Below, piece after piece: positions 14 to 16,104 of a stretch of 30,295 nucleotides of DNA. Each line of letters begins with the position of its first letter. The first letter of the stretch is position 1. A model generated the notes under the pieces. That model was not told the DNA's origin. It saw only the letters and a program-made list of their open reading frames with translations, and did not search any database. A program made the translations under genes and the position numbers. The stretch lies in the NCBI GenBank assembly GCA_046595725.1, contig JBKJOC010000189.1, forward strand, positions 1 through 30,295, in the 5' to 3' direction. The DNA comes from Candidatus Eiseniibacteriota bacterium (GTDB lineage Bacteria > Eisenbacteria > RBG-16-71-46 > DASYSL01).

Positions 14-1405
14 ATGCCGACCCTGCTCGCCCAGGGCAAGCCCCGCACGCTGGGTGGCAGTGCGCGGCCGTGGCGGGTTCGGCTCTACGAGCCAGAGGAC
101 GGCGGCACGAAGTATCAGGTGATGTTCCGCGCCCCGGCCGGCGACGGCGAGCCGTGGAAGCGAGTGCTGCGTCGCGCCAACTCCGAGGAGGAAGCTCGCA
201 AGATCTTCAACCAAGCTGAGGCCGCGCTCGACACCGACAAGGAAGCCCCGGCCGGTGCCGACGTCCGCGCCTCTCGCACCATCCACATGCTCGGCGAGGA
301 GTACCTCCAAGACAGCCGTGAGCGCGGCAAGCAGCCCCGGACCATGGAGGGCCGCGAGTCCCGGCTCAACGCCCACATCAACCCCACCATCGGCGACGTG
401 CCGGTGGCCAAGTGGCGGGTCGAGCACAGCCGCAAGGTGATGGAGAAGGGCGGCAAGACCCTCTTCTCCACGCGCGGCCGTGAGGACCTTCGCGGGCAGA
501 TGGCGGCGATGCGCAAGTTGGCGTGGCGACTGGGCTGGCTCGATCGTTCGATCGATCCGCTCGACGGGTTGGAGATTGGCAGGGCCAACGTTCTCCACGG
601 AGCAACGGTTCATTACGTCGACCCACGCCTGCGGCCCGAGACTCGTCAGGTGAAGGCGATGGCCGACGCCGCCGATCTGCTGTGCGGGCCAGACGGTACT
701 GACCCGCTCCTGACTCGACTCGCCCTGTTCGGCACGAAGATCCGGGTTGCCGGGTTTGGCGGGCTGCGCCTCGGCGAGCAGAACGCACTGCGCGCAATCG
801 ACGTGTTCTTCGAGCACGGCTACGTCCATGTCAACGGGGCATGGATCACGCCACGCAAGGCCGACGGCTTCCGCGGTCCGGTGAAGAACCACTCGCTTCA
901 TGAGGTACCGCTGCCCGGCTCGCTCCTGCGCGACGAACTCCTCCCCCGCGTCAAAGAACTGCTCGGCCTACCCATGACGGCGACACTCCAGCAGGTCATC
1001 AACGCCCAGGACGCCGAGCGCGAGCGCCGAGCGGCGCTGGCGGCACGACAGAAGGACAGGAGCCTCGCGTGGTGGAACTACCCGGTTGCGACTGAGGACG
1101 AACTGTGGATCTTCATCGATACGTGGACCGGCATGCCCGTGAAGCCTGAGATGCACAACGAGCGTTGGCACCGAGTCCGCTCCTGGGTCGACGAGAACGA
1201 TCCTGACAACGCCTGGCCAAAGACGATCGTCTACCGCAACCTCCGCCACCACGCCGCCACCAAGTGGTTCCACGACGAGCTCGGCGAGCCGTGGGAGGTT
1301 GTCGCCCAGTACCTCGGCGACAGGCTCACCACGGTGCTGAATCACTACGTGCGGGCAGGCGAGGACTCCCTCCGCGACTCGGTGGCCAAACTCGTGAGGA
1401 TGTAG
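14..1405 (+). CDS. int: Tyrosine recombinase/integrase
   Basis: GLRLGE (catalytic Arg), RNLRHHAAT (H-x-x-R-like box), YLGD...NHY (catalytic Tyr). The frame is open to base 2, so the true start may lie upstream of the window. Confidence 0.9.
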   Translation: MPTLLAQGKPRTLGGSARPWRVRLYEPEDGGTKYQVMFRAPAGDGEPWKRVLRRANSEEEARKIFNQAEAALDTDKEAPAGADVRASRTIHMLGEEYLQDSRERGKQPRTMEGRESRLNAHINPTIGDVPVAKWRVEHSRKVMEKGGKTLFSTRGREDLRGQMAAMRKLAWRLGWLDRSIDPLDGLEIGRANVLHGATVHYVDPRLRPETRQVKAMADAADLLCGPDGTDPLLTRLALFGTKIRVAGFGGLRLGEQNALRAIDVFFEHGYVHVNGAWITPRKADGFRGPVKNHSLHEVPLPGSLLRDELLPRVKELLGLPMTATLQQVINAQDAERERRAALAARQKDRSLAWWNYPVATEDELWIFIDTWTGMPVKPEMHNERWHRVRSWVDENDPDNAWPKTIVYRNLRHHAATKWFHDELGEPWEVVAQYLGDRLTTVLNHYVRAGEDSLRDSVAKLVRM

Positions 1406-1479
1406 GTGTCATCCATTAGTGCGACGACGCCTTACCCTCGGACTAGCCCTCTACCAGTCGACCGACGTGGGCTTAGTCG

Positions 1480-4284
1480 CTATCGCCCAGATGCGGCGCG
1501 GCGGGCCTTCCGGTCGTCGGCGGGGACCTCGCGGCATAGCTCGGCCAGATCACACTTCGTGCACTTGTCCTCCCAGACCGGGAGCCTGGGCAGGTCGTTC
1601 TCCCGGAGCGAGTCGCCGGCGTCTTTGATGCGCCCGCGGACGGCGGTGAGGAGCGGATCCTCGACGAGCTCGCGGATCGTCTTGCCTTGCTCGTCGAGAT
1701 TAAGCACCTCGATCAGGTCGGCTCGCTCACCGGTGAGCTCCTCATACCCGACTGCGTAGACGTGCAACTGGTCCCGGGTGACGTCCTCGTCCTGAGCACG
1801 AGCTGTGGACTTGAAGTCAACGATGGCCAACTCATCACTGTCGAGGCGCCTGACCAAGTCGATCCTGCCGTCTACCGTGATGCCCGGAGCGACGTGCACC
1901 TGGATCTGTTTTTCGCTGTGGACGGTGCGTTCGAGGTCGGCCCCGTGCTCATTGAGGTACCGCTCCACAGCCTTGATGGCAGCAGCTCTCAACGTCGCCT
2001 TCAACGCCGGATAGGCGTAAGGCGCATGCAGGTGTCGGTCCACTAGTTCCTCGGCCGCAGCTGCAGTCAGCAGGTCACCCTCCAGTGCGCGCTTATGTGC
2101 CTCGGCGAGAGCGTCGTGGAGTCCTTTCCCGTACCCGAGCGCCTCGTGCAGCGGCGGGTTGAAGCCGTAAAGGAACCTAAGCTTGAACTGATACGGGCAC
2201 TCGAAGAGGTACTTCAACTCCGAGAACGACAGCGTGACGTTCGGAATCTCTCGCTTCGCATGCGGCACCAGTGTCGGGGCCGGTGCTCCAGGATCCCGGG
2301 TGAGGAACCACGTCTGCCGGGCACAGTGATCGAAGAACGCAGAACGGCGCCCATAGAGGCGGTTGCCTGGAACCGGGGAGTACGACACAAACAAAAACTT
2401 CTGGGCACGGGTCACCGCGACGTAGAACAGGCGCGTCTCGTCCTCAACGGTTCCCCTGTAGCGATCAGGACCCGCAACTGCAGTGTCAGGAATGACGTGG
2501 AACAGGCCGAGACCGCCCTGGCGCTTCGCGGGAAATCGGTTGCTTCGAAGGCACGGAACGAACACGACGGGCCACTGCATCCCCTTGGCCTGGTGGACCG
2601 TCGAAATGACGACGGCGTCAGGCGCCGCATACCCCACGTCGGCATCGGCGTCGGCGTAGTAATCGGGTGCTTGGAACTCCAGCCAAGCAGTAAACGCCTT
2701 GTACTTCTGGGCGGGATCGGTGTTGAAGTAGATCGCCTCGAAGTCCGAAATTGCCTGGCTGAATTTTCCGAGTTGGTAGAAGACAAGTTCAGCGCGAACT
2801 GAGTCTCCCGGCACGGTGTCCTCGCGGAGTCGCAGTGCTTCGAGGAACTCGAGGTAGAGCCGTTGAATGTTGTAGACCCCCCACCTCTCCCCTCGATCGA
2901 AGTCACGGCCCTCGTTCAAGACCCTCATCGCTGCTGCCCAGTCGCCAATGGCTGGGATCAAATTGGCGTCCTCAAAAAGACTGCGGAGTGCCACTGCGTC
3001 GATCTCGGCCACGACATAGCGGAAGACCCCGACGATTGCCTGGATCTCCGGGCTCTCAAAGAGACGATTCAGACCCTTGATGACATACGGGATCTGCCTA
3101 CTTCTCATCTCGTCAACGAGGGGGCCAGCGTCCCGAGCGACTGAGCGAAAGAGCACGGCACAGTCGGACCACGAAAGTCCTCGGGGGTCGGAGTCAGGCC
3201 CGTCTGTGAACGCGACCCCGCGCATCGCCTGAAGGCGGTCGCAGATCCACGCAGCCTCGGCCTCGGGATCTGGGAACTCGACCGCGAGGAGGTCTCCGCG
3301 GGCGAACTCCTGATGCCCGGAAGCAACCATCGCCTTCGGGAGGCGTGCGCCCATTGGGATGAGTTCGGCTACCGATCTACCAACTTCGACGACACCCTCG
3401 CTAGATCGAAAGTTGTCGTCCAACGTGACCTGTCGGACCCCGGTGTATCGGTCCTTAAAGGTCACGATGTTGCCGACTTCGCTCCCCCGCCACTGGTAGA
3501 TCGTTTGGTCATCGTCGCCGACCACGCACAGGTTGGCGCCAAACTGCGTCATGCCCTTGACGAGTCGCTCCTGAAGCGGGTTGACGTCTTGGTACTCGTC
3601 GACGACTACGTAGCGAATGTCATCGCTGATGTGCTTCTGCACCAGGCGCGCTGCGTCGTCCTCGTCAGGGTCACCCTCCAGGAATTGCACTGCAAGGTTG
3701 ATCATCTCGGTGAAGTCGAAGTACGAGTTGTCATAGAGGAGATTCATGTAGTCCCAGTGCGACTTGAGCACGCCTGCCGGAACGAGTGACTCGTCGACGG
3801 TGTCCTCTCTGAGCACGCTGGTCGCCTGCATGTAGAGCTTCGAGTGCACGAATCTGCGTAACCGTGGCGTCCCAGCCGAGAAGGTCGGACATTCGGCGAG
3901 ACCAGACTTGCGGCTGTTGCGGTCGATGAAGAGCCGGTTCGTTATGTCGGTGAGGACAGAGAACTTGAAGGTCTCGGGCACAAGCCGTTGCACCAGGTCG
4001 AGGGCGTAGCCGTGCATCGTCCCGAGGTACATCTCCGCCATGCCCTGCGTGCTCACGGCCTCCAATTCCAAAACGGTGTGGATGCGCTCCTTGAGTTCGG
4101 CTGCGGCCTTCTCCGTGAAGGTGAACGCGATGACGTTGCGCGGCTCGACACCGGGCTGCTTGAGGATCTCCACGACCCGCTGGGAGATCACCTGGGTCTT
4201 CCCGGAACCGGCACAAGCGATGATCTGGAGAGGCTCGTCAAGGCAAGCAATCGCCGCGGACTGCGCACTGGTGTATTCAGTCAT
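1480..4284 (-). CDS. UvrD/Rep-family (SF1A) helicase fused to C-terminal PD-(D/E)xK nuclease with 4-Cys motif
   Basis: ACAGSGKT, VVDEYQD, VGDDDQTIYQWRG, NFRS, STVHQAKG, EETR-like ETRLFYVAVTRA; C-terminal ECPYQF...GRIDL...IVDFKS...CTKCDLAELC. Start moved to ATG 4284, which overlaps the upstream stop (ATGACTGA). Confidence 0.9.
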   Translation of the reverse strand: MTEYTSAQSAAIACLDEPLQIIACAGSGKTQVISQRVVEILKQPGVEPRNVIAFTFTEKAAAELKERIHTVLELEAVSTQGMAEMYLGTMHGYALDLVQRLVPETFKFSVLTDITNRLFIDRNSRKSGLAECPTFSAGTPRLRRFVHSKLYMQATSVLREDTVDESLVPAGVLKSHWDYMNLLYDNSYFDFTEMINLAVQFLEGDPDEDDAARLVQKHISDDIRYVVVDEYQDVNPLQERLVKGMTQFGANLCVVGDDDQTIYQWRGSEVGNIVTFKDRYTGVRQVTLDDNFRSSEGVVEVGRSVAELIPMGARLPKAMVASGHQEFARGDLLAVEFPDPEAEAAWICDRLQAMRGVAFTDGPDSDPRGLSWSDCAVLFRSVARDAGPLVDEMRSRQIPYVIKGLNRLFESPEIQAIVGVFRYVVAEIDAVALRSLFEDANLIPAIGDWAAAMRVLNEGRDFDRGERWGVYNIQRLYLEFLEALRLREDTVPGDSVRAELVFYQLGKFSQAISDFEAIYFNTDPAQKYKAFTAWLEFQAPDYYADADADVGYAAPDAVVISTVHQAKGMQWPVVFVPCLRSNRFPAKRQGGLGLFHVIPDTAVAGPDRYRGTVEDETRLFYVAVTRAQKFLFVSYSPVPGNRLYGRRSAFFDHCARQTWFLTRDPGAPAPTLVPHAKREIPNVTLSFSELKYLFECPYQFKLRFLYGFNPPLHEALGYGKGLHDALAEAHKRALEGDLLTAAAAEELVDRHLHAPYAYPALKATLRAAAIKAVERYLNEHGADLERTVHSEKQIQVHVAPGITVDGRIDLVRRLDSDELAIVDFKSTARAQDEDVTRDQLHVYAVGYEELTGERADLIEVLNLDEQGKTIRELVEDPLLTAVRGRIKDAGDSLRENDLPRLPVWEDKCTKCDLAELCREVPADDRKARRAASGR

Positions 4285-5239
4285 CCTGGGACTCAATGTC
4301 GACGCGCGGAGCAGTAGCCTCGTTCGCGATTCCGTACGGAACATGAACTCCGGCAATGTGCTCCGCGGCGCCTGTCAGATGGATGTCCTGGTCGTCGAAG
4401 AAGATGTGCGGACGGAGAACTTGTAGCACCTTGGCCTTCTCGATGCCACCGAGGAAGAAGGCGTCGTTCACACGAACGCCCCACTCTCGCAGCGAGTGGA
4501 TGGCGCGCTCGTGTGCGGGCGCACTGCGAGCTGTGACCAGCGCGATGCGCAGTCGGGGCCGGTACGACTCATCGTCCAGACGGCGCTGTTCCTCCAACTG
4601 CTGGATGCGATTCAGATCCGCGAGGAGCGGCGTCAGCAGCCCAGGCTCGAGCGCCTCCGCCCGGCGAGCTGTCTCATGCTCCATGTACTCATCGATGCCA
4701 TCGGATTTGTATACCCGCTCTGACGAGTCGTCGGCCAGCACACCATCGAAGTCGAAGGCGATCCGAAGTGTGGGATCGGCGTCGTCGTACTCCGCCTCCG
4801 AGGGAAGAACATGACCGGCCGGGAAGCCGGCACTGATGGCTGCATCCACATCCGGGCGGTTGCCCGAGAGGAACAGCGACATTTCAAGCGCACCGATGTA
4901 CTCGTACGGCGCAACCCCCTGCGTGAAGATCGCTCGAGTCAAGTCGAGTTTGTGCTCGGCAATCGAACGCATCACCCTCAGGCCAGTGTCGGCGTCGTTG
5001 CGCGAAAGAACGATGACCTCGACGACCGGATCCGCCGGCCGAAGGTCGTTCAACCGAAGAAGACGCTGGATGAAAGGGAACGCGACCCCCTTTGGGAGGG
5101 TTGCGGCGATGTGATCGTCCTGATATTTCCGGTACGCAAGCTCGCCGTGTTCCCGGAAGTAGGCATCCGACTCCGTGAGATCGAACAGTGCGCTCGACGC
5201 GACTCCGACGACCAGCCGATCTGAAAGCTCATAAGCCAT
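4277..5239 (-). CDS. 5'-nucleotidase, cN-I type (HAD fold)
   Basis: LVVGVASSALFDL, GVAFPFIQRLL, LRIAFDFDGVLADD, LVTARSAPAHERA, PHIFFDDQ are typical of the PF06189-like family. Confidence 0.9.
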   Translation of the reverse strand: MAYELSDRLVVGVASSALFDLTESDAYFREHGELAYRKYQDDHIAATLPKGVAFPFIQRLLRLNDLRPADPVVEVIVLSRNDADTGLRVMRSIAEHKLDLTRAIFTQGVAPYEYIGALEMSLFLSGNRPDVDAAISAGFPAGHVLPSEAEYDDADPTLRIAFDFDGVLADDSSERVYKSDGIDEYMEHETARRAEALEPGLLTPLLADLNRIQQLEEQRRLDDESYRPRLRIALVTARSAPAHERAIHSLREWGVRVNDAFFLGGIEKAKVLQVLRPHIFFDDQDIHLTGAAEHIAGVHVPYGIANEATAPRVDIESQDD

Positions 5240-5245
5240 GTCGGC

Positions 5246-7951
5246 TCACACCTCGAAGACCTTCATGACTTCGTCGCCATAGTCATTGATGACCTTCACT
5301 GCGATCTTGTTGCCCTCGGAAGGAGCCGGGAACGGCCGCGAGACTGTCTGGTAAATCGACTCCCACGCGTCCTCGTCGACGTCGACCTTGAGCGCCGTCT
5401 TCAGCCGCTTGTACGGATCATTGCCCCCGGTGAAGTAGCAGTGCCGAACGAAGAACGACTCACCGTTGTAGTCCGTGTCGATCATCCAGAGCGCGATCTG
5501 GCTGGTGTCGTTGCTCCGCACCTCGCCTGTCGTGGGGTCGTAAATGTCGACGCCCTTGAGGTCGACGACGTAGCCGTCGGTGGTCTTGCTGATGTCGATG
5601 TCCGGCTCGCCGAACACCGTAAAGAGGTTGCCGGCTCCCGTCTTCTTCAACTCCTCCCCCATCAGCAGGTCGGCGTTCATCCGGACCATCAGCACCGGAA
5701 GCTTGCCCAGCAGGCGCGCTCCCTCCACCTGGGCGAAGCCCTCGTCGGACGCCTCGACCGTGACCCCGTCCGTTTCCGTCACGTTTGTGACGTTGGGATC
5801 GAATGCGAACCCAAGGATGCAGAGCAGGTTGACGTCCTCGGCCTGGATTGCTTCCTTAGCTGCGTTCTTCACGTACGCCGCGCTGACCGTGCCGTACTGC
5901 GGCCCGACGGCGATACCGACACGAGACGGCTTCGCGTGATCGCTGCTGGGCACCTGCTCACCGATCGCCTGGATGTACGAGCCGGCGTAGGTCTCGAACG
6001 CGGCAAACTTGATCCTCTCGGCCTTAGTTCCGTTTTGAATGCCGGCTTTGGAGAGGTTGTCCAGGATCGACTGCTCGAAGTTGGGAGCATCCGCGTTCTT
6101 GGCAGCGTCGGCCTCTGAGGTCGGTTCGCTCCAGTCCGTGAACGAGAGCGCACGGTGCGGACTCAGCGACTCAACCGAGAAGGGCCCGGCCACTCGAACC
6201 TTTTTGTTGTCTTGAAATGGCTTGTCGTGAAGGCGTTCGAAGTCAGCATGACGCTTTATCGCTGCGTCGATCTGCTCGCGAGCCATCCCGTCCTTGATGT
6301 CGGGATTGTTCGCGATCGACCGGAGAGTGATGCGCTGAACCCTCCCGCACACGAATCCTTGTCGAATGTCGCCGGAGAACTGCTGGCGCGCGAGCACCGT
6401 CGCCGTCAACGCTTGTTCCTTCTTGTGCCCCTCTACCGAGTCGGAGAGCAAATACCACGGGAAGCGAGCCGACATCACCCGCTGCCTAGCCAGCGTAAGG
6501 GCCACCCGCGAGGTGTCGATGGTCACCCATCGCCGTCCCCATTGCTCGGCGACGTATGCAGTCGTACCGGAGCCGCAGGTCGGATCGAGAACCAGATCCC
6601 CGGGGTCGCTCGTCATGAGCATGCAGCGCTGGATGACCTTTGTTGTTGTCTGAACGACGTAGACCTTGTCCGCCATGAAGCTGCTGACGGTGTCGTCCCA
6701 GAAATTGGACGACGGGTATGCAGGAAAATCGTCCAAGAAGCGGACGTAGCCAACACGGTTGGCCGTCGCCTCGATTCGGCCTGCCATCCGCAGTCTCTGC
6801 ACGCCCTCACGGTGAGTCTTCCACTCACCAGCAGTCGGCAGAAACTCTCGGCCCCCGAGTTCGATCGGGAAGAAGCCGGTTCTGCCCTCGCGCACGCGAG
6901 GCGATGTCATGTCACCCAGGGCGTAGAGCATCGCGCCCTCGGGCAACGTTCCGGACTTCTCAGTCGCAGTGGCGGACCGCCGGGTTCCATCCTTGAGCTC
7001 GATTCGGTTGTAGGCCGATGGGATGAACGTGTCGACCCCCTTGCCCTCAAATAGCTGTCGATACTTGAGCGACCCGCGGTCCTTGCCGTACCAGACTAGG
7101 TAGTCAGTTACAGGCGACAAGTACTCCGCTGTTGCTCCACTTGTCTTCTTCATGGCAATCATCGAGACAAAGTTTTCAGATCCGAACACCTCATCCATGA
7201 GCGACCTGACGAGATGAACGTTCTCGTCACCGATCTGAACGAAGCACGAACCGGTTTCGTTGAGAAGCTCGCGTGAAGCAAACAGACGGTCGCGTAGATA
7301 CGTCAGGTAGGAGCCGATTCCGAGTTCCCAAGTGTCTCGGAACGCGCGAATGACCTCCGCCTCGCGGGTCGCGTCAACACGGGCGCCATCCTTAACGTTT
7401 TTGTTTCGCGTTGAGGCTTGCCAGTTGGAGCCGAACTTGATGCCATACGGCGGGTCAATGTAGACCATCTGGACTTTCCCACGGAGCTTCTCCCGCTCGG
7501 CGAGGGACGCCATGACCTGGAGGCTGTCTCCCAGGATCATTCGGTTCGACCAGTTGGCGTCATGCTCGTAGAACTCGATTTGCTGTAGGTCGTCGAGGCC
7601 GTCGAACGAGTCGAACAGCGTGAGCTCTGGCTCGTCCTCTGGACGTTGGGCCGTCCGGCGAAGGTTCTCGATTAGCACGCGCGGATCGATCTTCTCCTGG
7701 ATGTAGATCGGTGGCGCATCCGCGACCAGAGCGTCGTCGTACCCCTCAAGCTCGTCGGACTTGGGGTACTTGCCACGCCACACCAACTGGGGGTCGAGCG
7801 TCTCGTCGCGCGCATAGCGGACCTGTCGGATCTCCTCCAGGACGGCACTGTCGTGGAAGTCGACGGTGTCTGCTGTGGGGATGTTGGTCCGCTTCTCGTC
7901 GTGGGTGATCGAGTTGACGGGGGTTGGGCCCTTGGAGGTGTTACGCGCCAC
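5246..7951 (-). CDS. mod: Type III restriction-modification adenine methyltransferase (Mod)
   Basis: YIDPPYG catalytic motif precedes DPTCGSGTT SAM-binding motif (beta order). Probable GTG start at 7951 with AGGAG upstream; ORF track start is 8005. Confidence 0.9.
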   Translation of the reverse strand: MARNTSKGPTPVNSITHDEKRTNIPTADTVDFHDSAVLEEIRQVRYARDETLDPQLVWRGKYPKSDELEGYDDALVADAPPIYIQEKIDPRVLIENLRRTAQRPEDEPELTLFDSFDGLDDLQQIEFYEHDANWSNRMILGDSLQVMASLAEREKLRGKVQMVYIDPPYGIKFGSNWQASTRNKNVKDGARVDATREAEVIRAFRDTWELGIGSYLTYLRDRLFASRELLNETGSCFVQIGDENVHLVRSLMDEVFGSENFVSMIAMKKTSGATAEYLSPVTDYLVWYGKDRGSLKYRQLFEGKGVDTFIPSAYNRIELKDGTRRSATATEKSGTLPEGAMLYALGDMTSPRVREGRTGFFPIELGGREFLPTAGEWKTHREGVQRLRMAGRIEATANRVGYVRFLDDFPAYPSSNFWDDTVSSFMADKVYVVQTTTKVIQRCMLMTSDPGDLVLDPTCGSGTTAYVAEQWGRRWVTIDTSRVALTLARQRVMSARFPWYLLSDSVEGHKKEQALTATVLARQQFSGDIRQGFVCGRVQRITLRSIANNPDIKDGMAREQIDAAIKRHADFERLHDKPFQDNKKVRVAGPFSVESLSPHRALSFTDWSEPTSEADAAKNADAPNFEQSILDNLSKAGIQNGTKAERIKFAAFETYAGSYIQAIGEQVPSSDHAKPSRVGIAVGPQYGTVSAAYVKNAAKEAIQAEDVNLLCILGFAFDPNVTNVTETDGVTVEASDEGFAQVEGARLLGKLPVLMVRMNADLLMGEELKKTGAGNLFTVFGEPDIDISKTTDGYVVDLKGVDIYDPTTGEVRSNDTSQIALWMIDTDYNGESFFVRHCYFTGGNDPYKRLKTALKVDVDEDAWESIYQTVSRPFPAPSEGNKIAVKVINDYGDEVMKVFEV

Positions 7952-10900
7952 GAGCGCTCCTATCTGCGTGCGTCTCGTCGAAGTCGAGGAGTTCGGGGTC
8001 GCCAATGATCGGCTGGTCGTCGTACAGAGCCTGGATCGCCTCGGCTATCCGGACCTTGAAGCTGTTGGGGTCGGTCATCTCGATGTAGCCCCAGCGTCCG
8101 TAGCCGCCCTGATTGTTGACCGCGGTGCACCAGGAGTCGCGGGCAGTGGTCGCCTTCTGTTGGGTCGGCCCGGGGCTCTTCTGACTGCCCGACACCTCGA
8201 TGATCAGAGTGCGCTCCACGTCAGATTCGTCATGCTTGACTAGGCGCACCAGGAAATCTGGGATGTAGGAGTGACTACGGCCCTTGTGGACATACGGGAT
8301 TGAGAAGCCGAGGTGGTCGTTCTTGACGAAGGCATGCACGTTCTTGTTCAGCTCGAGCTCGCTGGCCATGAGCTGCTCCCATGTGTTGCCGTCTTTGCCA
8401 TCGAGGGTGACATGGGACACCTCGGACTTCTCGGTTGTGACCACGCGCTTCCGAGTGATGAAGTCAACCTCGCCGGTGGAGCCCTCAGGATCGAAGCGGT
8501 TGATCATCGGCCGCAGCCGCTCGCGACGATTCCCGACGTGCCGAGTGATGGCGTTCCACACCTGCTCGGCCGCCAGCACCCGGGCCTCGGTGATGGTCAT
8601 CAGGTAACCAAGGCTGTAGTCGCCCTTGAGTTCGACGCGCTGCTCGATCCAGTCCTGGCAGATCTGCACGAGCTTCGGGAACAGCCAGGGCCTCTTGTCG
8701 CCCGCTGTCGTGAATTGCTCGTCAAGGATGCGCTTGGCGAGCTCGAATGCGACCTGCTTGGGCCGGTACTGCGTCGGGTCGCCGTCTTCAAGCTCTCGCT
8801 GCCCGACGACGCCACCCATCTCAACCCAGGTTGGCACCGTGTTCGGGCCGATCTCGAAAACCGGAGCGTTCTCCAGGTCGAGCCAGATGTCCTCGTCGGG
8901 GAGCTCGACCCGATATCCGTCGAGCTTCGGGAAGCCGATCCGCAGGTGCTCGCGTCCTTCGAGTGCACACACTTCGATCGATGGCTTGGGCGGGGCCGGG
9001 TCGACGATGGGCTTGTCGCTCGAGATGAACTGGAAGGGGATGCCGTAGACGTTGGCGTACTCCGGTTCGAAGTACCCGTCGTCGTTGGTCGCATAGTTGC
9101 GGCGCCGCAAACCACGTCCGACGACCTGCTCGCATAGCAGCTGGCTGCCGAAGGCTCGGACTCCGAGGATGTGGGTGACCGTGTTGGCGTCCCAACCTTC
9201 GGTGAGCATCGAGACACTGACAACGCAGCGGACGTCTGCGCCGAGCTTGCCCTTCTTCCCGACGGTGTTCATGACCTCGCGGAGAAGATCTTCATCGCTG
9301 AGCTTCTCGGCATCAGCGCCGGGGTTGCGCTGGCGGTACTCGGCCTTGAATTTGGCGATTTCGAGACCGGCAGCCTTCTTGAAGTCGTCCTTGAGCGCCT
9401 CACCGGATTCAAGCTGCGCTGAGTCGATAAGGATGCTGAAAGGACGCGCGACGGGCTGGCCATCGACGACGTTGCTGAACAGCGGAAGGTTGCCTGCCTT
9501 ATGCGCGAGGATCTCGCCGTCTTCGACGATCGCCTCCCCAGCGATCCAGTCGTAGACGAGCTTGCTCACCACGGTGTTGGGACAGACCACAATGAAGACG
9601 GGCGGGGTCTCGCCGTACTCCCTGAGTTCGGTCTGCCAATGCCGATAGGCCTTCTCGTAGCTACGGTACAAACTTCGTAGCGCGCCTTCGAGCTCCTTCG
9701 GCGGCAGCCAGTCCTTAACCGTGTCCTTGGCTGCGCGCTTCGGAAGGAGCGTTCCGACGTAGTCCCACAGCCGCAGGTACGTGACTAGGTCCTCGTCAGC
9801 GTCGTCGTCGACCGGGGTCCTGGGGACCTTCACGATGCCGGCCTCGATCGCATCCATCAGGGAGAAGTCGCTGACGGTCCACGGGTAGATGTAACCCTCG
9901 TTGTATCCACTGCCCGACAGGTAGAACGGGGTCGCCGAAAGGTCCCAAATCTGCTTGATCCCGGTCTGCTTGGCGATCGCCTGCAGTCCTGAGAACCAGA
10001 CACCGGCTTTCTCGTTCTCCTCCGCCTGTTCTTTGGCTACCTTCTCGCCAGTCTGGATTGGGCGGGCGAGGTAGCAGTGATGCGCCTCGTCGTTGAGGAC
10101 CATGATTTGCTGCTTGTCAGTACCCAGATCCCGAAGCACGCGGCTGACCATCGCCTGGGGCGTTTCCTTGAAGGGGTCGCCCTTCCTGTCGCCCTTGAGG
10201 AGGAGTCGCGTGTTTTTAGCGACGCCCTTAATCTCCTTGGCGTCTCGGAGCATGAAGGAGTGATAGTTGGTGATCACGATGCGCGCGCTGTCGAGCCCGC
10301 CCTTGAGGTCCGACGGGACCAGATCACGCAGGTCGTAATAGTTCTCGCTGTCTTCGGGGAAGAGAACGCGCAGCCGGTCTCGGATGGTGATGCCAGGTGC
10401 CACGATCAGGAACCGGTTGGTGAAGCGGGCATCACGAGGCGCGTACTGCTTGTTCAGGGTCTGCCACGCGATGAGCATGGCCATCACGATGGTCTTGCCC
10501 GAGCCGGTGGCCATCTTTAGAGCGGCACGTGGCAGTCCGTTGTTGTGGGCTTCGTTCTCCGGCTCAAGGCGCTTGCGCCAGTCCGTCGGCCACTCCTTCC
10601 GGCCCGCGACTTCGGTGAGGAAAATCGCCGTCTCAGCCGCCTCGCGTTGAGCGAAGATGACCCGATTCTCCCGGGTCGGGTCGGCCCAGTGCTGAAGAAG
10701 CTTGCGGGAGATTGGGGTCACGCCGGCGTACTGACCGTCGCGGCGCCACCTATCCACATCGCGGCGGATGTCGTTGATCAGGCTGTTCTTCTCGCGGCGC
10801 TCATGCGTCGCGTCGAAGTCGAAGCCCTCCTGCTCGGAGCCGTCCCCGCCCTTCTTGCCCTTGCGACTGACCGCGATCGGAATGAACGACTCGCTCGGCC

Positions 10901-11009
10901 GCCGCCCATCCCGGATCTCTCCCGTCGGCCCCTGAGGGCCGATGAGGTAGTGACGATCGGGTTGCTCATAAGGCGTGTTGAGGATCGGATTGTCAATCGT
11001 CCCCGTCAT
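7941..11009 (-). CDS. res: Type III restriction endonuclease/helicase (Res), BPTD_3080-like
   Basis: LKMATGSGKT, NDEAHH, SATP, MLTEGWD, C-terminal YIPDF...IIEVSG nuclease motif. N-terminus IDNPILNTPYEQPDRHY supports ATG 11009. Confidence 0.88.
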   Translation of the reverse strand: MTGTIDNPILNTPYEQPDRHYLIGPQGPTGEIRDGRRPSESFIPIAVSRKGKKGGDGSEQEGFDFDATHERREKNSLINDIRRDVDRWRRDGQYAGVTPISRKLLQHWADPTRENRVIFAQREAAETAIFLTEVAGRKEWPTDWRKRLEPENEAHNNGLPRAALKMATGSGKTIVMAMLIAWQTLNKQYAPRDARFTNRFLIVAPGITIRDRLRVLFPEDSENYYDLRDLVPSDLKGGLDSARIVITNYHSFMLRDAKEIKGVAKNTRLLLKGDRKGDPFKETPQAMVSRVLRDLGTDKQQIMVLNDEAHHCYLARPIQTGEKVAKEQAEENEKAGVWFSGLQAIAKQTGIKQIWDLSATPFYLSGSGYNEGYIYPWTVSDFSLMDAIEAGIVKVPRTPVDDDADEDLVTYLRLWDYVGTLLPKRAAKDTVKDWLPPKELEGALRSLYRSYEKAYRHWQTELREYGETPPVFIVVCPNTVVSKLVYDWIAGEAIVEDGEILAHKAGNLPLFSNVVDGQPVARPFSILIDSAQLESGEALKDDFKKAAGLEIAKFKAEYRQRNPGADAEKLSDEDLLREVMNTVGKKGKLGADVRCVVSVSMLTEGWDANTVTHILGVRAFGSQLLCEQVVGRGLRRRNYATNDDGYFEPEYANVYGIPFQFISSDKPIVDPAPPKPSIEVCALEGREHLRIGFPKLDGYRVELPDEDIWLDLENAPVFEIGPNTVPTWVEMGGVVGQRELEDGDPTQYRPKQVAFELAKRILDEQFTTAGDKRPWLFPKLVQICQDWIEQRVELKGDYSLGYLMTITEARVLAAEQVWNAITRHVGNRRERLRPMINRFDPEGSTGEVDFITRKRVVTTEKSEVSHVTLDGKDGNTWEQLMASELELNKNVHAFVKNDHLGFSIPYVHKGRSHSYIPDFLVRLVKHDESDVERTLIIEVSGSQKSPGPTQQKATTARDSWCTAVNNQGGYGRWGYIEMTDPNSFKVRIAEAIQALYDDQPIIGDPELLDFDETHADRSARGA

Positions 11010-11094
11010 GCGCACCCATTCCTGTCGACTCCCTTGAAGTCCCACCCTAGTGAGATCGCGCGCCTCGCGGGCCCCTTCCGCTGACGCAGGCCCA

Positions 11095-11337
11095 TCAGCT
11101 CGATCGGGCGAGCGACCGATAGCCCTCGGTCTCCGAAGACGTCAGATGCCAGCCCCGGCAGGCCCGGCATGGGTAGGCGCGACACTCTTGCCTGCGGGTC
11201 TCGGTGCGTTCCCGAATGGCCAACCGGCGGGCCGCCACAGCGCGGTGGAGTGCCTCCACAGCCTCGGTCTGATCGCGGAACCGGCGCTTTCCGCCGCCCG
11301 GGCACCGTGCGAGATGGCGACGAGCGTGTGATGCCAT
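11095..11337 (-). CDS. Small basic hypothetical protein (80 aa) with C...AYxCxxCxGWHLTS putative Zn-binding motif
   Basis: AAGGAG RBS 8 nt before ATG 11337; sequence MASHARRHLARCPGGGKRRFRD...ECRAYPCRACRGWHLTSS. It is only the tail of the ORF-track entry 11095..11958. Confidence 0.7.
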   Translation of the reverse strand: MASHARRHLARCPGGGKRRFRDQTEAVEALHRAVAARRLAIRERTETRRQECRAYPCRACRGWHLTSSETEGYRSLARSS

Positions 11338-11484
11338 GGTCGGGACTCCTTCTTCGACGCGGTCCCGAGATTGGACACGCCACACAATGCACGGCACCAC
11401 CGACAGAACCGAGCAAGGCAGATTCGCCTGCGGTCCACGCCTGCTCCTACTAGCCTTTGCTCCGAGGGGATGAGGACGACTCGG

Positions 11485-14400
11485 ATGACCAATGGACTTG
11501 AAGGCTTGACCAGCCTCTCCAGGTCGTCTGATCACCTGGGCAATCTGGCCAACGTTCTTAAGGACCTCGGCGGCGGCGGAACCTTGCTGCACGAATTGAC
11601 GCAGAACGCGAACGACGCCGGCGCGGACCAAGTCCGATTCACCGCGACCGACCACGAGCTCACCGTCTGGAACTCTGCCGTCTTCACCGATTGTGGCCGC
11701 CAGGACCTTCGGCAGTGTCCATGGAAGGTTGACGACGGGAAGCGCAGCTGCGACCTTCACTCGTTCAGACAGGTAGCCGGTCGGCACAAGGCGGACGACG
11801 ACGCCACAACCGGCGCGTTCGGAGTGGGCTTCACTGCCGTGTACCAGATAACAGATCACCCCGAGCTCGTGACCGGCGGAAGTCACCTGGTTCTCGACGA
11901 GTCGCGAGCCGAGGACGACCGCATCGAAGTGTGTCGCCGAAAGTGCGGGCGCGACCACTCGACAGCCGGAACGACCTTCTATCTACCGTGGGCGAGACAA
12001 CAGACGGCGCTGCGCACGGAGCTCGGTGCTTCTGCTCTCGGCGACGATGAGATCACCGATTTAATTGCTGAGATGGCCGCGGCTGCCGGCCCGGCGCTCG
12101 TGTTTCTTGAGCATGTGCAGCGCCTGGATGTCGACGCTCGCGGCATCCCAACCACCGTCACGCGGTCTCCGGATGGAGATCGAGTAATTCTTTCGGTCGA
12201 CGGCGTACGAGGCGAGTGGCTTCTTTTGGCCGGTCGCGCGGCGAGCTCGCAGGAACTCAAGGAACGGTTCGATCAGGGACACTCGCGATCGGACCTCGTC
12301 CAGGTCGCCGTTCCGATAGATGGAGACGTCGTGGGTCGGATCTACGCGGACCTGCCGACGGAAACTCCAAGCGGCTGGAGTGGACATATCAATGGCACGT
12401 TCTTCCCTCGGCAGGACCGGAAAGGGATCGAGTTCGACGGGGCCGGTTTCCGTGGGCGTTGGAACGATCTGCTGATTGACACCGCTGCCCGGATCATGGC
12501 CGAGCAGTTGGAGACCATCGCAAGTGCCCTCGGGCACCGAGTGGCGTGGGCATACGTGGTCGACGCAGAACTAATCAATCGAGCGATTCAAAAATCTGGT
12601 CAGTTCCCACAGGCGTTCGGGGCATTCTTCGAGCAAGCGAAAGCCTCGATTCCGCAGGCACCAATCGTCTTGTTGGTCGACGGCTCGTCGGTGACTCCCC
12701 GTGGCACCGTTGTACCCCGCAACGAGGTTGAGTACGACGCTGCCGACGTACTCGCCAAACTCGGACTTTCGATCATCGATCCTGATCTCCGACCGCTGAT
12801 TCTTCAAATCACGTACACGGAGTATGGGATCCGCCAGCTCAACACCGCCCACATCGTTGACGCCCTCCAGAATGCGGATCTTGTCGAAGCCTGGACACCC
12901 ACCCACACAACCGACTTCACCGCCAGCGACGTCGAGGTCGTCCTCCGCTTGCTCGACAACCTCCAAGATCGAGGCAAGTCGATCCTGGTTGACGCAGGAG
13001 CTGGCGAGGTCGCGATCGTTCCCTGCATCGATGGCTCGTTCGCGGTCGCAGACTCGGTCTCAAGGCTCCATGGCGACGACCGTGCACTGTTCGAACTCCT
13101 AGATCCCGAACTCAAGATCCTCGACGAGCCCCGGCTCGCGGCGCTCTGCCCCGCCCTGGTCGAACTATGCGACGACATCACCCCGAGCCGCGCGATCGAA
13201 ATCTTTGAGGCCGACTCAGAGGCACTCTCTGTTGGTCCCGATCTCGTTTTGGAGTGGCTGGCAAACCACCGGGCTGCCCTCGTCAATGAGGACTTGCGAG
13301 CACGTGTTTGTGCCCTGCCGATCTTCCCGAGTGCGTCAGGCGAGCTTCGGCCTCTCAACGACCTGTCGCTCCCATCCGACTTTGCTGATGTTCTCGGGGT
13401 CGCCGATGTGGTGGATCAAGACAAGATCGCCGGCCACACCGACCTACTGCGTCTCCTCGGTGCCAAGGAACTCGACGCGGCCGAGTACCTGACCAAACAC
13501 GTCGCGCCGTTCGCAGCCGATGGCGAGCTGACCACAGCGTTGGCTGCGGGCGTCCTGGAGATCGTCCACTGGCACCGCCCGGAGCTTGAGGCGCAAGGCG
13601 CACGGGATCTTCTCCGTCGAACCCCGCTCGTGCCATGCACTGACGGCATCATGCGGGTCGGACCCGAAGTGCACCTTCCCAACCGAGCGCTGAGCCTGAT
13701 CGCCCCGGACGCACCCATCGCCGACACAGCGCTCCTCGGGGACCATCTGCGGAGCGCTCTTACCTGGCTAGGCGTCGCTGACCAACCCAGTCACGCCGTA
13801 CTGAACGAGGCCGCTCGACGCCTCGGCGAGGAGGCCGCACAGCCAAACGTCGATGTTGCGCTCGCTGTCCTCAATGCATTGCCAAATCCGCCAGAGTCCG
13901 AAAACCCGCCAGCTGCCCTGAACGAGCTTCGCGCTTCATCCTGGCTTCCGTGCGAAGGGGGCGTACGCGGTCGCCCTGATGAGGTCTTCGCGATCTTCCA
14001 GCGGTACCTCTTCGAGTCCCAGGGCAAGAAGCTGGCCGTCGCCAGAGAGGACCAGCAGCGCCTCACGAAGGTCCTCGACTGGCTGGGCGTCCAAAGCACA
14101 CCGACAACGGCCATGGTCGTGGCTCACCTTCGTCATTGCGCAGAGCGTGGGCTCACCATGAACCCCGAGGTATACAGAGCGCTTGGTCAGGCGAAGGAGG
14201 AGTACCTCGTCACTGCCCTCCGCGGCGTCCCATGCATTCAGGTCGCCCTAGGCGAGTTCGTCGAACCGACCAACGTGTTCTGGTCAGATCCGGGGTTCGG
14301 CTCATGGGCGCAGGTGCTGTCCCCGACAGGCCGTGAGTATCAAGCTTTTTATGACCGCGTACGGGTGAACGAAGCGCCATCGCCGGACCAGATCGAGCAG

Positions 14401-15915
14401 ACGCTACGAGGCATCAGCCGAGCTGCCAGCAACGACCGCCTAGGTGAAGAGGACAAACGCGTCGTCCACCGCTGCTGGGAACTTCTAGATGAGGTCGTCG
14501 GTTCCGCAGGCGAACAATTGGCGCGTCTTGGTGCCATCAAGAGCGCAGTCGGACCGCGGGACATTCTCGAGATGCCCACGATGCTCCTGTTCGCTGACGG
14601 CCGGCGCCTCGCAGAGGGAATCCAGCTGATCAGAGACAACCTTGTCCGGCGAGACAAGACGACCCACCGCGCGCTCGCGGCCGCGGGTGTCCGTGCAGCC
14701 GAGGAGGTCATCACTCCTCATGTGGACGCCGCACTCAGATACGACGAAGCAGCGGACCTGCCGTCGAGGATCCGAGACCGGGTGTCCGCGCTGGAGCGCC
14801 TCGTCGAAGCTCAACGGACCGATGGAATCGACATAGACCTCGACCGGCTTGCGGACCTACGCATCGACGTCATGCCTGAGCTCGCGGTTGAGTACGTGAC
14901 CAGGTTTGCCCATCAGCATCACATTGATCCCCCGCGACCGACCGAAGCCATCTACTTCGCCGATGATCACCGCCTGATCGTGCGTGAAGACAAGCCGAGT
15001 CGACACGTGGGCCGTGAAATCGCTCTCTGTATTGCTCCAGATCTCGACGCCAGCTCCTTGGCTCCGTCAATCACCGAGGTCTTGGTCGCGCCGAGTCTTA
15101 CGGATGCCATGAGTGCGCTGGATGACTATGGTGTGCGCGACCTCGATGCGACGACGTGGCAGCCGGTCGAGAGTCAGTCGGCTGTCGAGGTCGACGTTGA
15201 CGACTCGGAGCGCTGGACCGACGAATCAGAACCGAACCCGGCTGACCCCACCCAAACCCGCGATAGTGATGCCGAGTCCGACCAGATCCCGGACCCGGAG
15301 GACGAAAGTGATCGAACGCTCGAGCATGGCACCGCGGCAGGGAAATCGAATCGCACCAAATCCAAAGCGCGAACGAGATCAGGCACCGGGCAACGGCGAA
15401 CGCAGATGGCGTCGTTCGTCTCGTTCGACGAGGACGAGCGCGAGTTCAACCAATCCGGCGACGAGGCACCCGAACGGTCGGCCGTCGATGAGGCTGGAGT
15501 CGCTCGGGTCCTTACCTACGAGCTGTCCTGCGGCCGCGTTCCCGAAGAGCAGGCCCACAACAACCCAGGCTTCGACGTGCTCTCAAGAGATGACGAGGGC
15601 GAGGTGGTTCGACGCATTGAAGTCAAGTCGATCGGCGGCGCATGGACGGGATTCGGCGTGTGGATGTCCGCCACGCAGCTTGAAGACAACCGCGTATCTG
15701 GAGACGACTACTGGCTGTACGTCGTGGAGCACGCCGAGGACGATGACGCCGCGGTCCTCCACCGGATTCAGAATCCCGCAGCCCGGGCCACAAAGTACGG
15801 CTTCGACGCTGGCTGGCAAGCGCTCCGCGAACCCGACCTCGAACGCGACGAGTCGGGGAAGCCATTGACCAGCGACACGCGCCGCCTACTCGGCTGGACC
15901 TCAGACGGAGCCTGA
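11485..15915 (+). CDS. Sacsin-like GHKL ATPase with internal repeats and C-terminal DUF3883 (NO VEIN C-term) nuclease-like domain
   Basis: ELTQNANDA, WNSAVFT, TGAFGVGFTAVYQITDHP; C-terminal GFDVLS...IEVKS...YWLYVVE. ATG 11485 has GAGG upstream; ORF track starts at TTG 11371. Confidence 0.8.
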   Translation: MTNGLEGLTSLSRSSDHLGNLANVLKDLGGGGTLLHELTQNANDAGADQVRFTATDHELTVWNSAVFTDCGRQDLRQCPWKVDDGKRSCDLHSFRQVAGRHKADDDATTGAFGVGFTAVYQITDHPELVTGGSHLVLDESRAEDDRIEVCRRKCGRDHSTAGTTFYLPWARQQTALRTELGASALGDDEITDLIAEMAAAAGPALVFLEHVQRLDVDARGIPTTVTRSPDGDRVILSVDGVRGEWLLLAGRAASSQELKERFDQGHSRSDLVQVAVPIDGDVVGRIYADLPTETPSGWSGHINGTFFPRQDRKGIEFDGAGFRGRWNDLLIDTAARIMAEQLETIASALGHRVAWAYVVDAELINRAIQKSGQFPQAFGAFFEQAKASIPQAPIVLLVDGSSVTPRGTVVPRNEVEYDAADVLAKLGLSIIDPDLRPLILQITYTEYGIRQLNTAHIVDALQNADLVEAWTPTHTTDFTASDVEVVLRLLDNLQDRGKSILVDAGAGEVAIVPCIDGSFAVADSVSRLHGDDRALFELLDPELKILDEPRLAALCPALVELCDDITPSRAIEIFEADSEALSVGPDLVLEWLANHRAALVNEDLRARVCALPIFPSASGELRPLNDLSLPSDFADVLGVADVVDQDKIAGHTDLLRLLGAKELDAAEYLTKHVAPFAADGELTTALAAGVLEIVHWHRPELEAQGARDLLRRTPLVPCTDGIMRVGPEVHLPNRALSLIAPDAPIADTALLGDHLRSALTWLGVADQPSHAVLNEAARRLGEEAAQPNVDVALAVLNALPNPPESENPPAALNELRASSWLPCEGGVRGRPDEVFAIFQRYLFESQGKKLAVAREDQQRLTKVLDWLGVQSTPTTAMVVAHLRHCAERGLTMNPEVYRALGQAKEEYLVTALRGVPCIQVALGEFVEPTNVFWSDPGFGSWAQVLSPTGREYQAFYDRVRVNEAPSPDQIEQTLRGISRAASNDRLGEEDKRVVHRCWELLDEVVGSAGEQLARLGAIKSAVGPRDILEMPTMLLFADGRRLAEGIQLIRDNLVRRDKTTHRALAAAGVRAAEEVITPHVDAALRYDEAADLPSRIRDRVSALERLVEAQRTDGIDIDLDRLADLRIDVMPELAVEYVTRFAHQHHIDPPRPTEAIYFADDHRLIVREDKPSRHVGREIALCIAPDLDASSLAPSITEVLVAPSLTDAMSALDDYGVRDLDATTWQPVESQSAVEVDVDDSERWTDESEPNPADPTQTRDSDAESDQIPDPEDESDRTLEHGTAAGKSNRTKSKARTRSGTGQRRTQMASFVSFDEDEREFNQSGDEAPERSAVDEAGVARVLTYELSCGRVPEEQAHNNPGFDVLSRDDEGEVVRRIEVKSIGGAWTGFGVWMSATQLEDNRVSGDDYWLYVVEHAEDDDAAVLHRIQNPAARATKYGFDAGWQALREPDLERDESGKPLTSDTRRLLGWTSDGA

Positions 15916-16104
15916 CTCCTCGACCTCCGCCCCAAGCCCATTGCCAACCACCAATGGCTCTTCAATCCCTCGCGCCATAGCCCCCTTCTCACCTGCCATT
16001 TCAGCGGCACGCATGCTATGAAATTCGGTAGGGAAAGCTGCGACCAACTACCCCCTGAACAGCGGTTTCGTGGTTATCGACGGTTGTTGACGGAGGCGAT
16101 TCGG
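15916..16104. promoter_or_regulatory. Candidate oriT/promoter region
   Basis: Non-coding gap directly upstream of the relaxase with short inverted repeats (CCATTG/CAATGG, GGTAG/CTACC). Positional inference only; no nic site recognised. Confidence 0.3.

Follow-up and report, generated by a model that had tools for sequence, protein, structure and literature searches.

The 30,295 bp contig JBKJOC010000189.1 of a Candidatus Eiseniibacteriota bacterium, analysed here over its entire length and referred to as the window, derives from a metagenome-assembled genome that is 81% complete and carries on its minus strand (11009-1480) four long co-oriented genes. These encode a Type III-like restriction subunit (Res), a beta-class DNA methyltransferase (Mod), a PF06189 5'-nucleotidase-family protein and a UvrD-Cas4-like helicase-nuclease. 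We read them as a defence operon in layers, carried by an integrative mobilisable element, in which a three-gene core of Res, Mod and the helicase-nuclease is accompanied by a swappable embedded nucleotidase that would act independently, and we give this reading a probability of roughly 0.62. The reading draws on the anatomy of the operon, the intact catalytic motifs of its products, the linkage of the helicase-nuclease to restriction-modification (RM) genes, the variability of the slot in which the nucleotidase lies and the fact that RM operons have recruited this gene on independent occasions.

The open reading frame (ORF) listing and its translations define the four genes and their junctions closely. 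Translation of Res starts at an ATG, codon 13 of the longest ORF, and its stop overlaps the GTG start of Mod by 11 nt (GTGGCGCGTAA), with an AGGAG Shine-Dalgarno sequence 5 nt upstream of the GTG. A gap of 6 nt separates the Mod stop from the nucleotidase gene, upstream of whose start lies GAGG, and the helicase-nuclease gene, which begins with ATG, overlaps the end of the nucleotidase gene by 8 nt (ATGACTGA). A sequence-only reading of this DNA had described four co-oriented genes with an 11-nt overlap, a 6-nt gap and an 8-nt overlap, which is exactly what is found. Because independent gene calls on homologous contigs give the identical 11-nt Res/Mod overlap and the same tight junctions, the four-gene arrangement is not a product of chance. 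A scan of positions 1300-11600 for promoters and terminators was uninformative, as it returned no promoter-like sites and fewer terminator-like sites than shuffled sequence.

Res contains the superfamily 2 (SF2) helicase-like ATPase characteristic of Type III RM systems (PF04851 ResIII, E 7e-12), with a Walker A motif GSGKT and a DEAH box in its translation, and matches over its full length the NCBIfam model NF046055 ('BPTD_3080 family restriction endonuclease'), scoring 1165 bits where the cut-off is 800. For the C-terminal PD-(D/E)xK endonuclease motif of Type III Res subunits the translation offers a tentative candidate, the PD...E.....K-like stretch YIPDF...IIEVSGSQK, seen by eye and unvalidated, and no Pfam nuclease domain is matched in the protein. 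Mod is likewise of the Type III kind, a beta-class PF01555 N6_N4_Mtase enzyme (98 bits) that matches the PADLOC MTase_III model PDLC03632 with an E-value of 6e-252 and has DPPY ahead of an FxGxG-type S-adenosylmethionine-binding motif (DPTCGSGTT); among solved structures EcoP15I Mod (4zcf_A, E 1e-13) is the best relative. Res-Mod pairs of this family occur in representative genomes commonly without the helicase-nuclease and often alone. In a sample of 206 genomes from the host's phylum the Res family was found in 18, UvrD-Cas4 in 2 and PF06189 in 2, the host's own genome being counted in the last two figures, and all three are therefore rare accessory genes.

The helicase-nuclease joins an N-terminal UvrD/Rep superfamily 1 (SF1) helicase (PF00580 UvrD-helicase, PF13361 UvrD_C) to a C-terminal Cas4-like nuclease (PF12705 PDDEXK_1, Cas_Cas4) with four Fe/S cysteines, and thus has the make-up of a UvrD-Cas4-like fusion. 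In an alignment of 29 family sequences, with a mean column identity of 82%, K29 of the Walker A motif GSGKT, the DEYQD box and D823-F-K825 are invariant; among the Fe/S cysteines C696 is also invariant, and C908, C911 and C917 are conserved in at least 90% of the sequences. The residues that had been singled out from the sequence as catalytic, namely Walker A Lys29 and D823-F-K825 here and Asp163 and Asp165 of the DFDG motif in the nucleotidase, all prove invariant in the family alignments.

Relatives of the helicase-nuclease were surveyed in 87 loci at 24-91% identity, with neighbours labelled by phmmer and Pfam, and linkage to Mod was counted, at a distance of up to 6 kb, among the 39 loci with at least 44% helicase-nuclease identity. 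A Type III-like Mod is present within this distance in 26 of the 39, and in 20 of these 26 Res is also in view. The 12 Mod-negative loci are all gene fragments or are truncated, on one side or both, by a contig end no more than 4 kb away, and the one further locus, from Myceligenerans (L103), retains only a Mod remnant corresponding to the last 82 residues. The genes occur in the orders Res-Mod-(X)-UvrD, UvrD-Mod-Res and UvrD-RadC-Mod-Res as well as in convergent arrangements, and the linked Mod and Res proteins belong to at least four sequence families; this variation in orders and families argues that the linkage of helicase-nuclease and RM genes has been kept by selection and not merely inherited. 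In a clade at ~30% identity the gene directly upstream of UvrD-Cas4 is often a C5 methyltransferase (Dcm, 13 loci). An earlier survey (Hudaiberdiev et al. 2017, BMC Evol Biol 17:232, PMC5704561) describes the UvrD-Cas4-like fusion as monophyletic, gives Type III Mod and Res as its commonest context and Dcm as the second, notes WYL/HTH and Schlafen-like neighbours and predicts an ancillary defence role; the window itself presents the first of these contexts, and no later paper using the UvrD-Cas4-like term was found in the literature searched. Our counts support the view, published earlier as a prediction, that the helicase-nuclease is a genuine and conserved accessory in Type III-like RM systems.

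Two further features of these loci may be recorded here. The Mod remnant of L103 is a 155-residue ORF that matches positions 902-983 of PDLC03632 (E 3e-34), and this locus has lost Res and Mod and kept a SIR2 gene together with UvrD-Cas4. Several UvrD-Mod-Res loci carry, directly downstream of UvrD-Cas4, a gene for a RadC-like JAB-domain protein (PF04002), which lies between UvrD-Cas4 and the RM genes where Mod and Res follow downstream (Table 1).

The slot between Mod and the helicase-nuclease turns over fast. Among close relatives, in which the helicase-nuclease is 78-91% identical and a divergent TmtA gene is often shared, it is occupied by the nucleotidase, a YaaC-like protein, an OLD-family ATPase or a SIR2 protein, or is empty, and at 59-72% identity it is empty or holds GmrSD or AbiEi/AbiEii (Table 1). 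The nucleotidase is thus not a fixed partner of the helicase-nuclease, and neither a pair nor a fixed four-gene system is supported. This divides the proposal of the sequence-only reading that nucleotidase and helicase-nuclease together form an accessory arm of the RM system: the helicase-nuclease keeps that role, with a Type III Mod in 26 of 39 loci, and the nucleotidase does recur in RM operons, if loosely, but the pairing falls away. The neighbourhood search that the same reading had called for gave a similarly mixed result, as the four-gene block recurs in L082, L084 and L191 but the slot is otherwise filled by YaaC, the OLD-family ATPase or SIR2 or left empty, and 14 of 80 nucleotidase loci are of Type I without UvrD-Cas4. 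The pattern looks like that of the 'embedded gene' hotspots of Type I RM, BREX, DISARM and Hma. A second, distant SIR2-Dcm-UvrD-Cas4 arrangement was observed in L164.

The nucleotidase matches PF06189 along the whole model (positions 1-302 of 302) at 404 bits against a cut-off of 28.2, and the PADLOC model PDLC04900 of the candidate PDC-S08 with an E-value of 2e-135. HAD catalytic motifs I-IV are intact, and among 30 sequences the likely catalytic residues D163, D165, T236, K268 and D283 are invariant, with D282 conserved in at least 90%. The AlphaFold 2 model (predicted local distance difference test score 89) presents a tandem duplication of the HAD fold. Residues 148-305 form the half with the catalytic motifs (Z 11.1 against the T4 Pnkp 3'-phosphatase domain), and residues 6-146 form a degenerate HAD-like half, with VGVASS in place of DxD, that would be catalytically dead (Z 11.9 against the T4 Pnkp phosphatase). 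For both halves T4 Pnkp is the best structural match, followed by many HAD phosphatases and deoxyribonucleotidases at Z 9-10, and the two halves align weakly to one another (E 0.02). The tandem fold was brought out only by the exhaustive structural aligner; a PDB sequence search with the nucleotidase detected no solved structure, and Foldseek with the model returned nothing at E <=0.001. No copy of the gene was found in any of the 14 same-genus and same-family genomes searched.

Comparison of nucleotidase neighbourhoods across 80 species-representative loci, at 57-75% identity, showed that recruitment into RM operons extends beyond Type III. In 14 of the 80 the gene is embedded in the hsdS-hsdR slot of a Type I operon without UvrD-Cas4, in the order hsdM-hsdS-nucleotidase-(YhcG/RhuM/Abi_2/SLFN)-hsdR. 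The end of hsdS lies within 200 nt of the nucleotidase start in 13 of these 14 loci, and classic cargo (YhcG/DUF1016, RhuM, Abi_2, SLFN) is often found alongside; a single context look-up gave hsdM-hsdS-nucleotidase-(95 residues)-SLFN/HTH-hsdR. Queries confined to the window's Type III proteins had suggested that the nucleotidase lacks RM association, a view that was overturned when Type I queries exposed the hsdS-nucleotidase-hsdR embedding. The gene therefore lies inside multi-gene defence systems both between hsdS and hsdR and, in the window and in L082, L084 and L191, between Mod and UvrD-Cas4. In a Microbacterium locus (L067) the order is Mod-Res-nucleotidase, followed by a convergent and distant UvrD-Cas4, and a quick maximum-likelihood tree places this nucleotidase far from the clade of the window. 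That tree, a quick search supported by Shimodaira-Hasegawa-like approximate likelihood-ratio values only, requires the Type III context to have been gained or lost at least twice and the Type I context at least five times. The family apparently has chromosomal members too. Directly upstream of hsdM in 13 of the nucleotidase-embedding Type I loci we observed a protein of ~620-720 residues with no Pfam or PADLOC match (Table 1).

From what is established for Type III enzymes, RecB/AddAB-type helicase-nucleases and HAD nucleotidases, a mechanism can be proposed in which Mod would mark self DNA and Res, together with Mod, would cut unmethylated invader DNA. The helicase-nuclease would load on the cut ends and unwind and degrade them, as RecB and AddAB do, which could make restriction irreversible without the host's RecBCD or AdnAB. 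The nucleotidase would add an independent second layer by dephosphorylating (deoxy)nucleoside monophosphates and so starving phage replication or salvage; it would be co-transcribed with the RM genes and mechanistically need neither these nor the helicase. For HAD phosphatases a role as antiphage effectors that deplete nucleotides is proven in other systems (PUA-Cal-HAD, bioRxiv 10.64898/2026.01.15.699771).

Several points weigh against this reading. The literature searched contains no experimental defence evidence for the UvrD-Cas4 family or for PDC-S08, and no test of the latter turned up apart from its listing in a Pseudomonas aeruginosa defence-system survey. The substrate of the nucleotidase is only predicted, and the folds nearest to it are those of polynucleotide 3'-phosphatase domains (T4 Pnkp, Pnkp1); it may therefore act on nucleic-acid ends. 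The start and stop codons that overlap or nearly overlap on both sides of the nucleotidase gene suit an integrated system equally well. Small slot effectors without a sensor, such as the nucleotidase and the 338-residue SIR2 protein, would be expected to need a regulator, which favours a partner for them, and in L103 SIR2 and UvrD-Cas4 have persisted together after the loss of Res and Mod. Finally, clades of the nucleotidase across Demequina, Nocardioides and Streptomyces look vertically inherited, the Nocardioides gene adjoins PhoX and a hydrogenase gene stands beside some of the genus-wide copies, for which reasons the enzyme may be metabolic.

Part of this evidence would suit a model, close to the integrated four-gene idea of the sequence-only reading, in which UvrD-Cas4 senses DNA ends and works with an exchangeable upstream effector (nucleotidase, SIR2, OLD-family ATPase or YaaC), so that restriction cuts trigger depletion of nucleotides or of nicotinamide adenine dinucleotide (NAD). 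The slot gene overlaps UvrD-Cas4 by 4-8 nt in the case of the nucleotidase, SIR2 and the OLD ATPase, an OLD-family ATPase beside a UvrD-type helicase is the architecture of Gabija and of class 2 OLD systems, and neither the SIR2 nor the nucleotidase protein has a sensor domain. The retention of SIR2 with UvrD-Cas4 beside a mere Mod remnant in L103, the distant SIR2-Dcm-UvrD-Cas4 locus, the independent capture of a nucleotidase beside a distant UvrD-Cas4 in L067 and the recurrence of the four-gene block in four contig families with different flanks all point the same way. However, many loci have nothing in the slot, the UvrD-Mod-Res arrangements show no recurring partner gene ahead of UvrD, the self-sufficient systems AbiEi/AbiEii and GmrSD also occupy the slot, at least 14 Type I operons contain the nucleotidase but no UvrD-Cas4, and in L067 the nucleotidase and UvrD-Cas4 are convergent and so not co-translated. 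We consider such a model unlikely. Its fuller version, a modular restriction-to-abortive-infection relay in which UvrD-Cas4 is the DNA-end-sensing hub that couples RM cuts to the upstream effector and of which the window is the nucleotide-depleting version, is in our view slightly less likely again; in such a relay the HAD nucleotidase would deplete nucleotides and SIR2 would deplete NAD, and an OLD-family nuclease/ATPase or YaaC could also serve as the effector.

The occurrence of the nucleotidase in the very slot of PrrC, hsdS-X-hsdR, raises the question of whether it is a latent abortive-infection effector that is silenced by the RM complex and freed once a phage anti-restriction protein inhibits that complex. 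Payne et al. (bioRxiv 10.1101/2024.01.29.577857) report that PrrC is nearly always found nested within Type I RM systems. Repeated recruitment into RM operons of two types would fit such a guard, and the degenerate N-terminal HAD half could be regulatory, but the Type I and Type III hosts have no common subunit to which the protein could bind and many family members lie outside any RM context, so that this explanation appears improbable. We are more doubtful still that the nucleotidase is an ordinary enzyme of nucleotide or phosphate salvage which hitch-hikes in the operon without a role in defence. The genus-wide, apparently vertical clades speak for this, as do the PhoX alkaline phosphatase and NiFe hydrogenase genes among their neighbours and the fact that these copies are 57-75% identical to the window protein with the likely catalytic residues unchanged. 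Against it stand the repeated independent embedding, with tight junctions, in RM operons together with Abi_2, RhuM, YhcG, SLFN and GmrSD, the absence of the gene from all 14 genomes of the same genus and family, and the recognised defence genes that fill the same slot in relatives. The reading as a core of Res, Mod and helicase-nuclease with an independently acting embedded nucleotidase is therefore the one that we prefer.

Table 1. Positions of the operon genes and neighbouring features in the window, and of related features in the loci compared (L numbers); aa, amino acids.
Feature	Position or locus	Strand	Matches or remarks
Res, Type III-like restriction subunit (SF2 helicase-type ATPase, BPTD_3080 family), 1022 aa	7941..11009	-	ResIII, NF046055
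Mod, beta-class N6/N4 DNA methyltransferase, 901 aa	5246..7951	-	PF01555, PADLOC MTase_III
PF06189 5'-nucleotidase-family protein (predicted tandem HAD fold; PADLOC candidate PDC-S08), 320 aa, embedded cargo gene	4277..5239	-	PF06189, PDLC04900
UvrD-Cas4-like helicase-nuclease (SF1 helicase + PD-(D/E)xK nuclease, 4-Cys Fe/S motif), 934 aa	1480..4284	-	PF00580, PF13361, PF12705, Cas_Cas4
Tiamat TmtA, separate system, divergent from Res	11371..15915	+	PADLOC TmtA PDLC03969, 1291 bits
Tyrosine recombinase of mobile element, convergent with operon 3' end	14..1405	+	weak PF00589 + PF14659 matches
TrwC relaxase	16018-18645		Pfam
80-aa Cys-rich ORF	11098-11337	-	CP...C...CxxC...GWHLT
Slot: nucleotidase	window, L082/L083, L084/L085, L191		
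Slot: YaaC-like protein	L138, L188		
Slot: OLD-family ATPase	L189, L190		PADLOC Old 2e-35, also GajA/AriA
Slot: SIR2	L103		338 aa
Slot: empty, close relatives	L100/L101		
Slot: empty, 59-72% identity	L102, L106		
Slot: GmrSD, 59-72% identity	L104		
Slot: AbiEi/AbiEii, 59-72% identity	L107, L108		L108 also with DUF4209 protein
Mod remnant	L103:8519-8986		PDLC03632
RadC-like JAB-domain gene	L134:4934-5659; L137, L140, L165, L128, L099, L126		PF04002
Protein of ~620-720 aa upstream of hsdM	L003:5269-7227, L005:5297-7243, L186:3849-5726, + 10 more loci		
HerA-p464-D12 trio	L082:13824-18391, L191:10176-14784, L189:12233-16493, L190:11858-16172		
HerA-p464-D12 trio	L138:12886-16083, L102:7604-12245, L103:13305-18006, L157:12749-17084		

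With a tyrosine recombinase, the divergent TmtA gene and a TrwC relaxase nearby, the operon is best placed as cargo of a defence-packed mobile element. TmtA is also divergent from Res in the close relatives L138, L189 and L190, and in L103 it stands divergently beside the Mod remnant; as a conserved neighbour in the closest relatives it suggests that the backbone TmtA | Res-Mod-X-UvrD-Cas4, where X denotes the slot, moves as a block. Between the start region of TmtA and Res, and in the orientation of Res, lies the 80-residue Cys-rich ORF of Table 1, preceded by a GAAGGAG Shine-Dalgarno sequence; it has no Pfam match and no homologue in any of the loci fetched, and could be a controller protein or no gene at all. 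A trio of genes for a HerA-like DUF87 ATPase (~680 residues), an unannotated protein of 454-465 residues and a D12-class (Dam-like) methyltransferase adjoins UvrD-Cas4 in either orientation in other loci, even where UvrD-Cas4 is only 30% identical (L157), and is absent from the window. PADLOC gives it weak HerA/mad8 matches and labels the methyltransferase PD-Lambda-5_B, and the trio may be an uncharacterised methylation-based system. That UvrD-Cas4 belongs to this trio was considered and rejected, since the window and most loci at 44-70% identity lack the trio, whereas Mod is nearly always present.

The three-gene core was known before as a prediction (UvrD-Cas4, 2017) and the nucleotidase as a catalogued candidate (PDC-S08, 2024). 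The sequence-only reading recognised no named system here, which holds for the four-gene set but not for its accessory parts, both of which are catalogued. What is new is that the cargo slot of Type III/UvrD-Cas4 operons changes its content quickly, that two RM types have repeatedly and independently recruited the nucleotidase, and that this protein has a predicted tandem-HAD architecture. UvrD-Cas4 and PDC-S08 are large, widespread families with a predicted role in defence, and the loci compared here form a natural swap series in which one conserved backbone, TmtA | Res-Mod-X-UvrD-Cas4, is combined with at least five different occupants of X. This series makes it testable whether a mobile RM system brings its own end-processing nuclease and thereby makes restriction irreversible, and whether embedded genes act alone or via their host system. 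Through it, 'guilt-by-embedding' reaches beyond Type I RM, BREX and DISARM to Type III systems, and YaaC and the sensor-less SIR2 protein are put forward as further defence candidates.

Compared with the canonical Type III enzymes EcoP15I and EcoP1I, the operon is alike in that its Mod is of the beta class and related to EcoP15I Mod, that its Res carries an SF2 ResIII ATPase and that the two genes overlap. It differs in the order of these genes, with res preceding mod, in a ~350-residue C-terminal extension of Mod and in Res itself, which belongs to the BPTD_3080 family (NCBIfam) and has no sequence-detectable similarity to EcoP15I Res, a PDB sequence search giving no match to that protein. 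The helicase-nuclease has the same domain fusion as the UvrD-Cas4-like proteins of PMC5704561, a UvrD SF1 helicase with a PF12705 Cas4-like 4-Cys nuclease, and both neighbourhoods described in that paper are re-derived here from independent metagenome loci; the passages of it that were searched mention neither a slot of varying cargo between Mod and the fusion gene nor a nucleotidase in that position. Its helicase half also matches models of GajB, the UvrD-like helicase that accompanies the OLD-family ATPase/nuclease GajA in Gabija (E 8e-51), and an OLD-family ATPase is encoded directly upstream of UvrD-Cas4 in the relatives L189 and L190. However, the GajB-model matches are confined to ORF residues ~25-465, beyond which the Cas4-like Fe/S nuclease domain follows, and the gene for UvrD-Cas4 is tied to methyltransferases. 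Membership of Gabija was rejected, since no neighbouring gene in the window matches the GajA or Old models of PADLOC, and filing under Hma or MADS was set aside with only weak, domain-level PADLOC matches (mad2, mad3, mad8).

The nucleotidase matches the model of PDC-S08, one of the PDC candidates that Payne et al. (bioRxiv 10.1101/2024.01.29.577857) defined through embedding in BREX, DISARM or Type I RM, and the Type I embedding seen here in 14 of 80 loci accords with that definition. The host in the window, in contrast, is a Type III-like RM system with UvrD-Cas4, a class outside that survey, whose text makes no mention of a nucleotidase. PUA-Cal-HAD (bioRxiv 10.64898/2026.01.15.699771) likewise uses an Mg-dependent DxDx(T/V) HAD enzyme that acts on nucleotides as its defence effector, an activity that is predicted for the window protein. 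Its HAD component, however, is a capped single-domain deoxynucleoside triphosphate gamma-phosphatase bound to a sensor scaffold, whereas the PF06189 protein belongs to the cN-IA nucleotidase family, is predicted to be a tandem HAD and has no identified sensor. In its position the nucleotidase resembles PrrC of the EcoprrI Type I locus and TgvAB of the Vibrio cholerae VPI-2 Type I locus (bioRxiv 10.1101/2024.04.04.588119), where a defence gene is also nested, co-oriented, between RM subunit genes. The nested products there are an anticodon nuclease and a GmrSD-type nuclease, respectively, in place of the predicted HAD nucleotidase found here, and they span both modes of action considered above, TgvAB being autonomous and PrrC controlled by its RM system.

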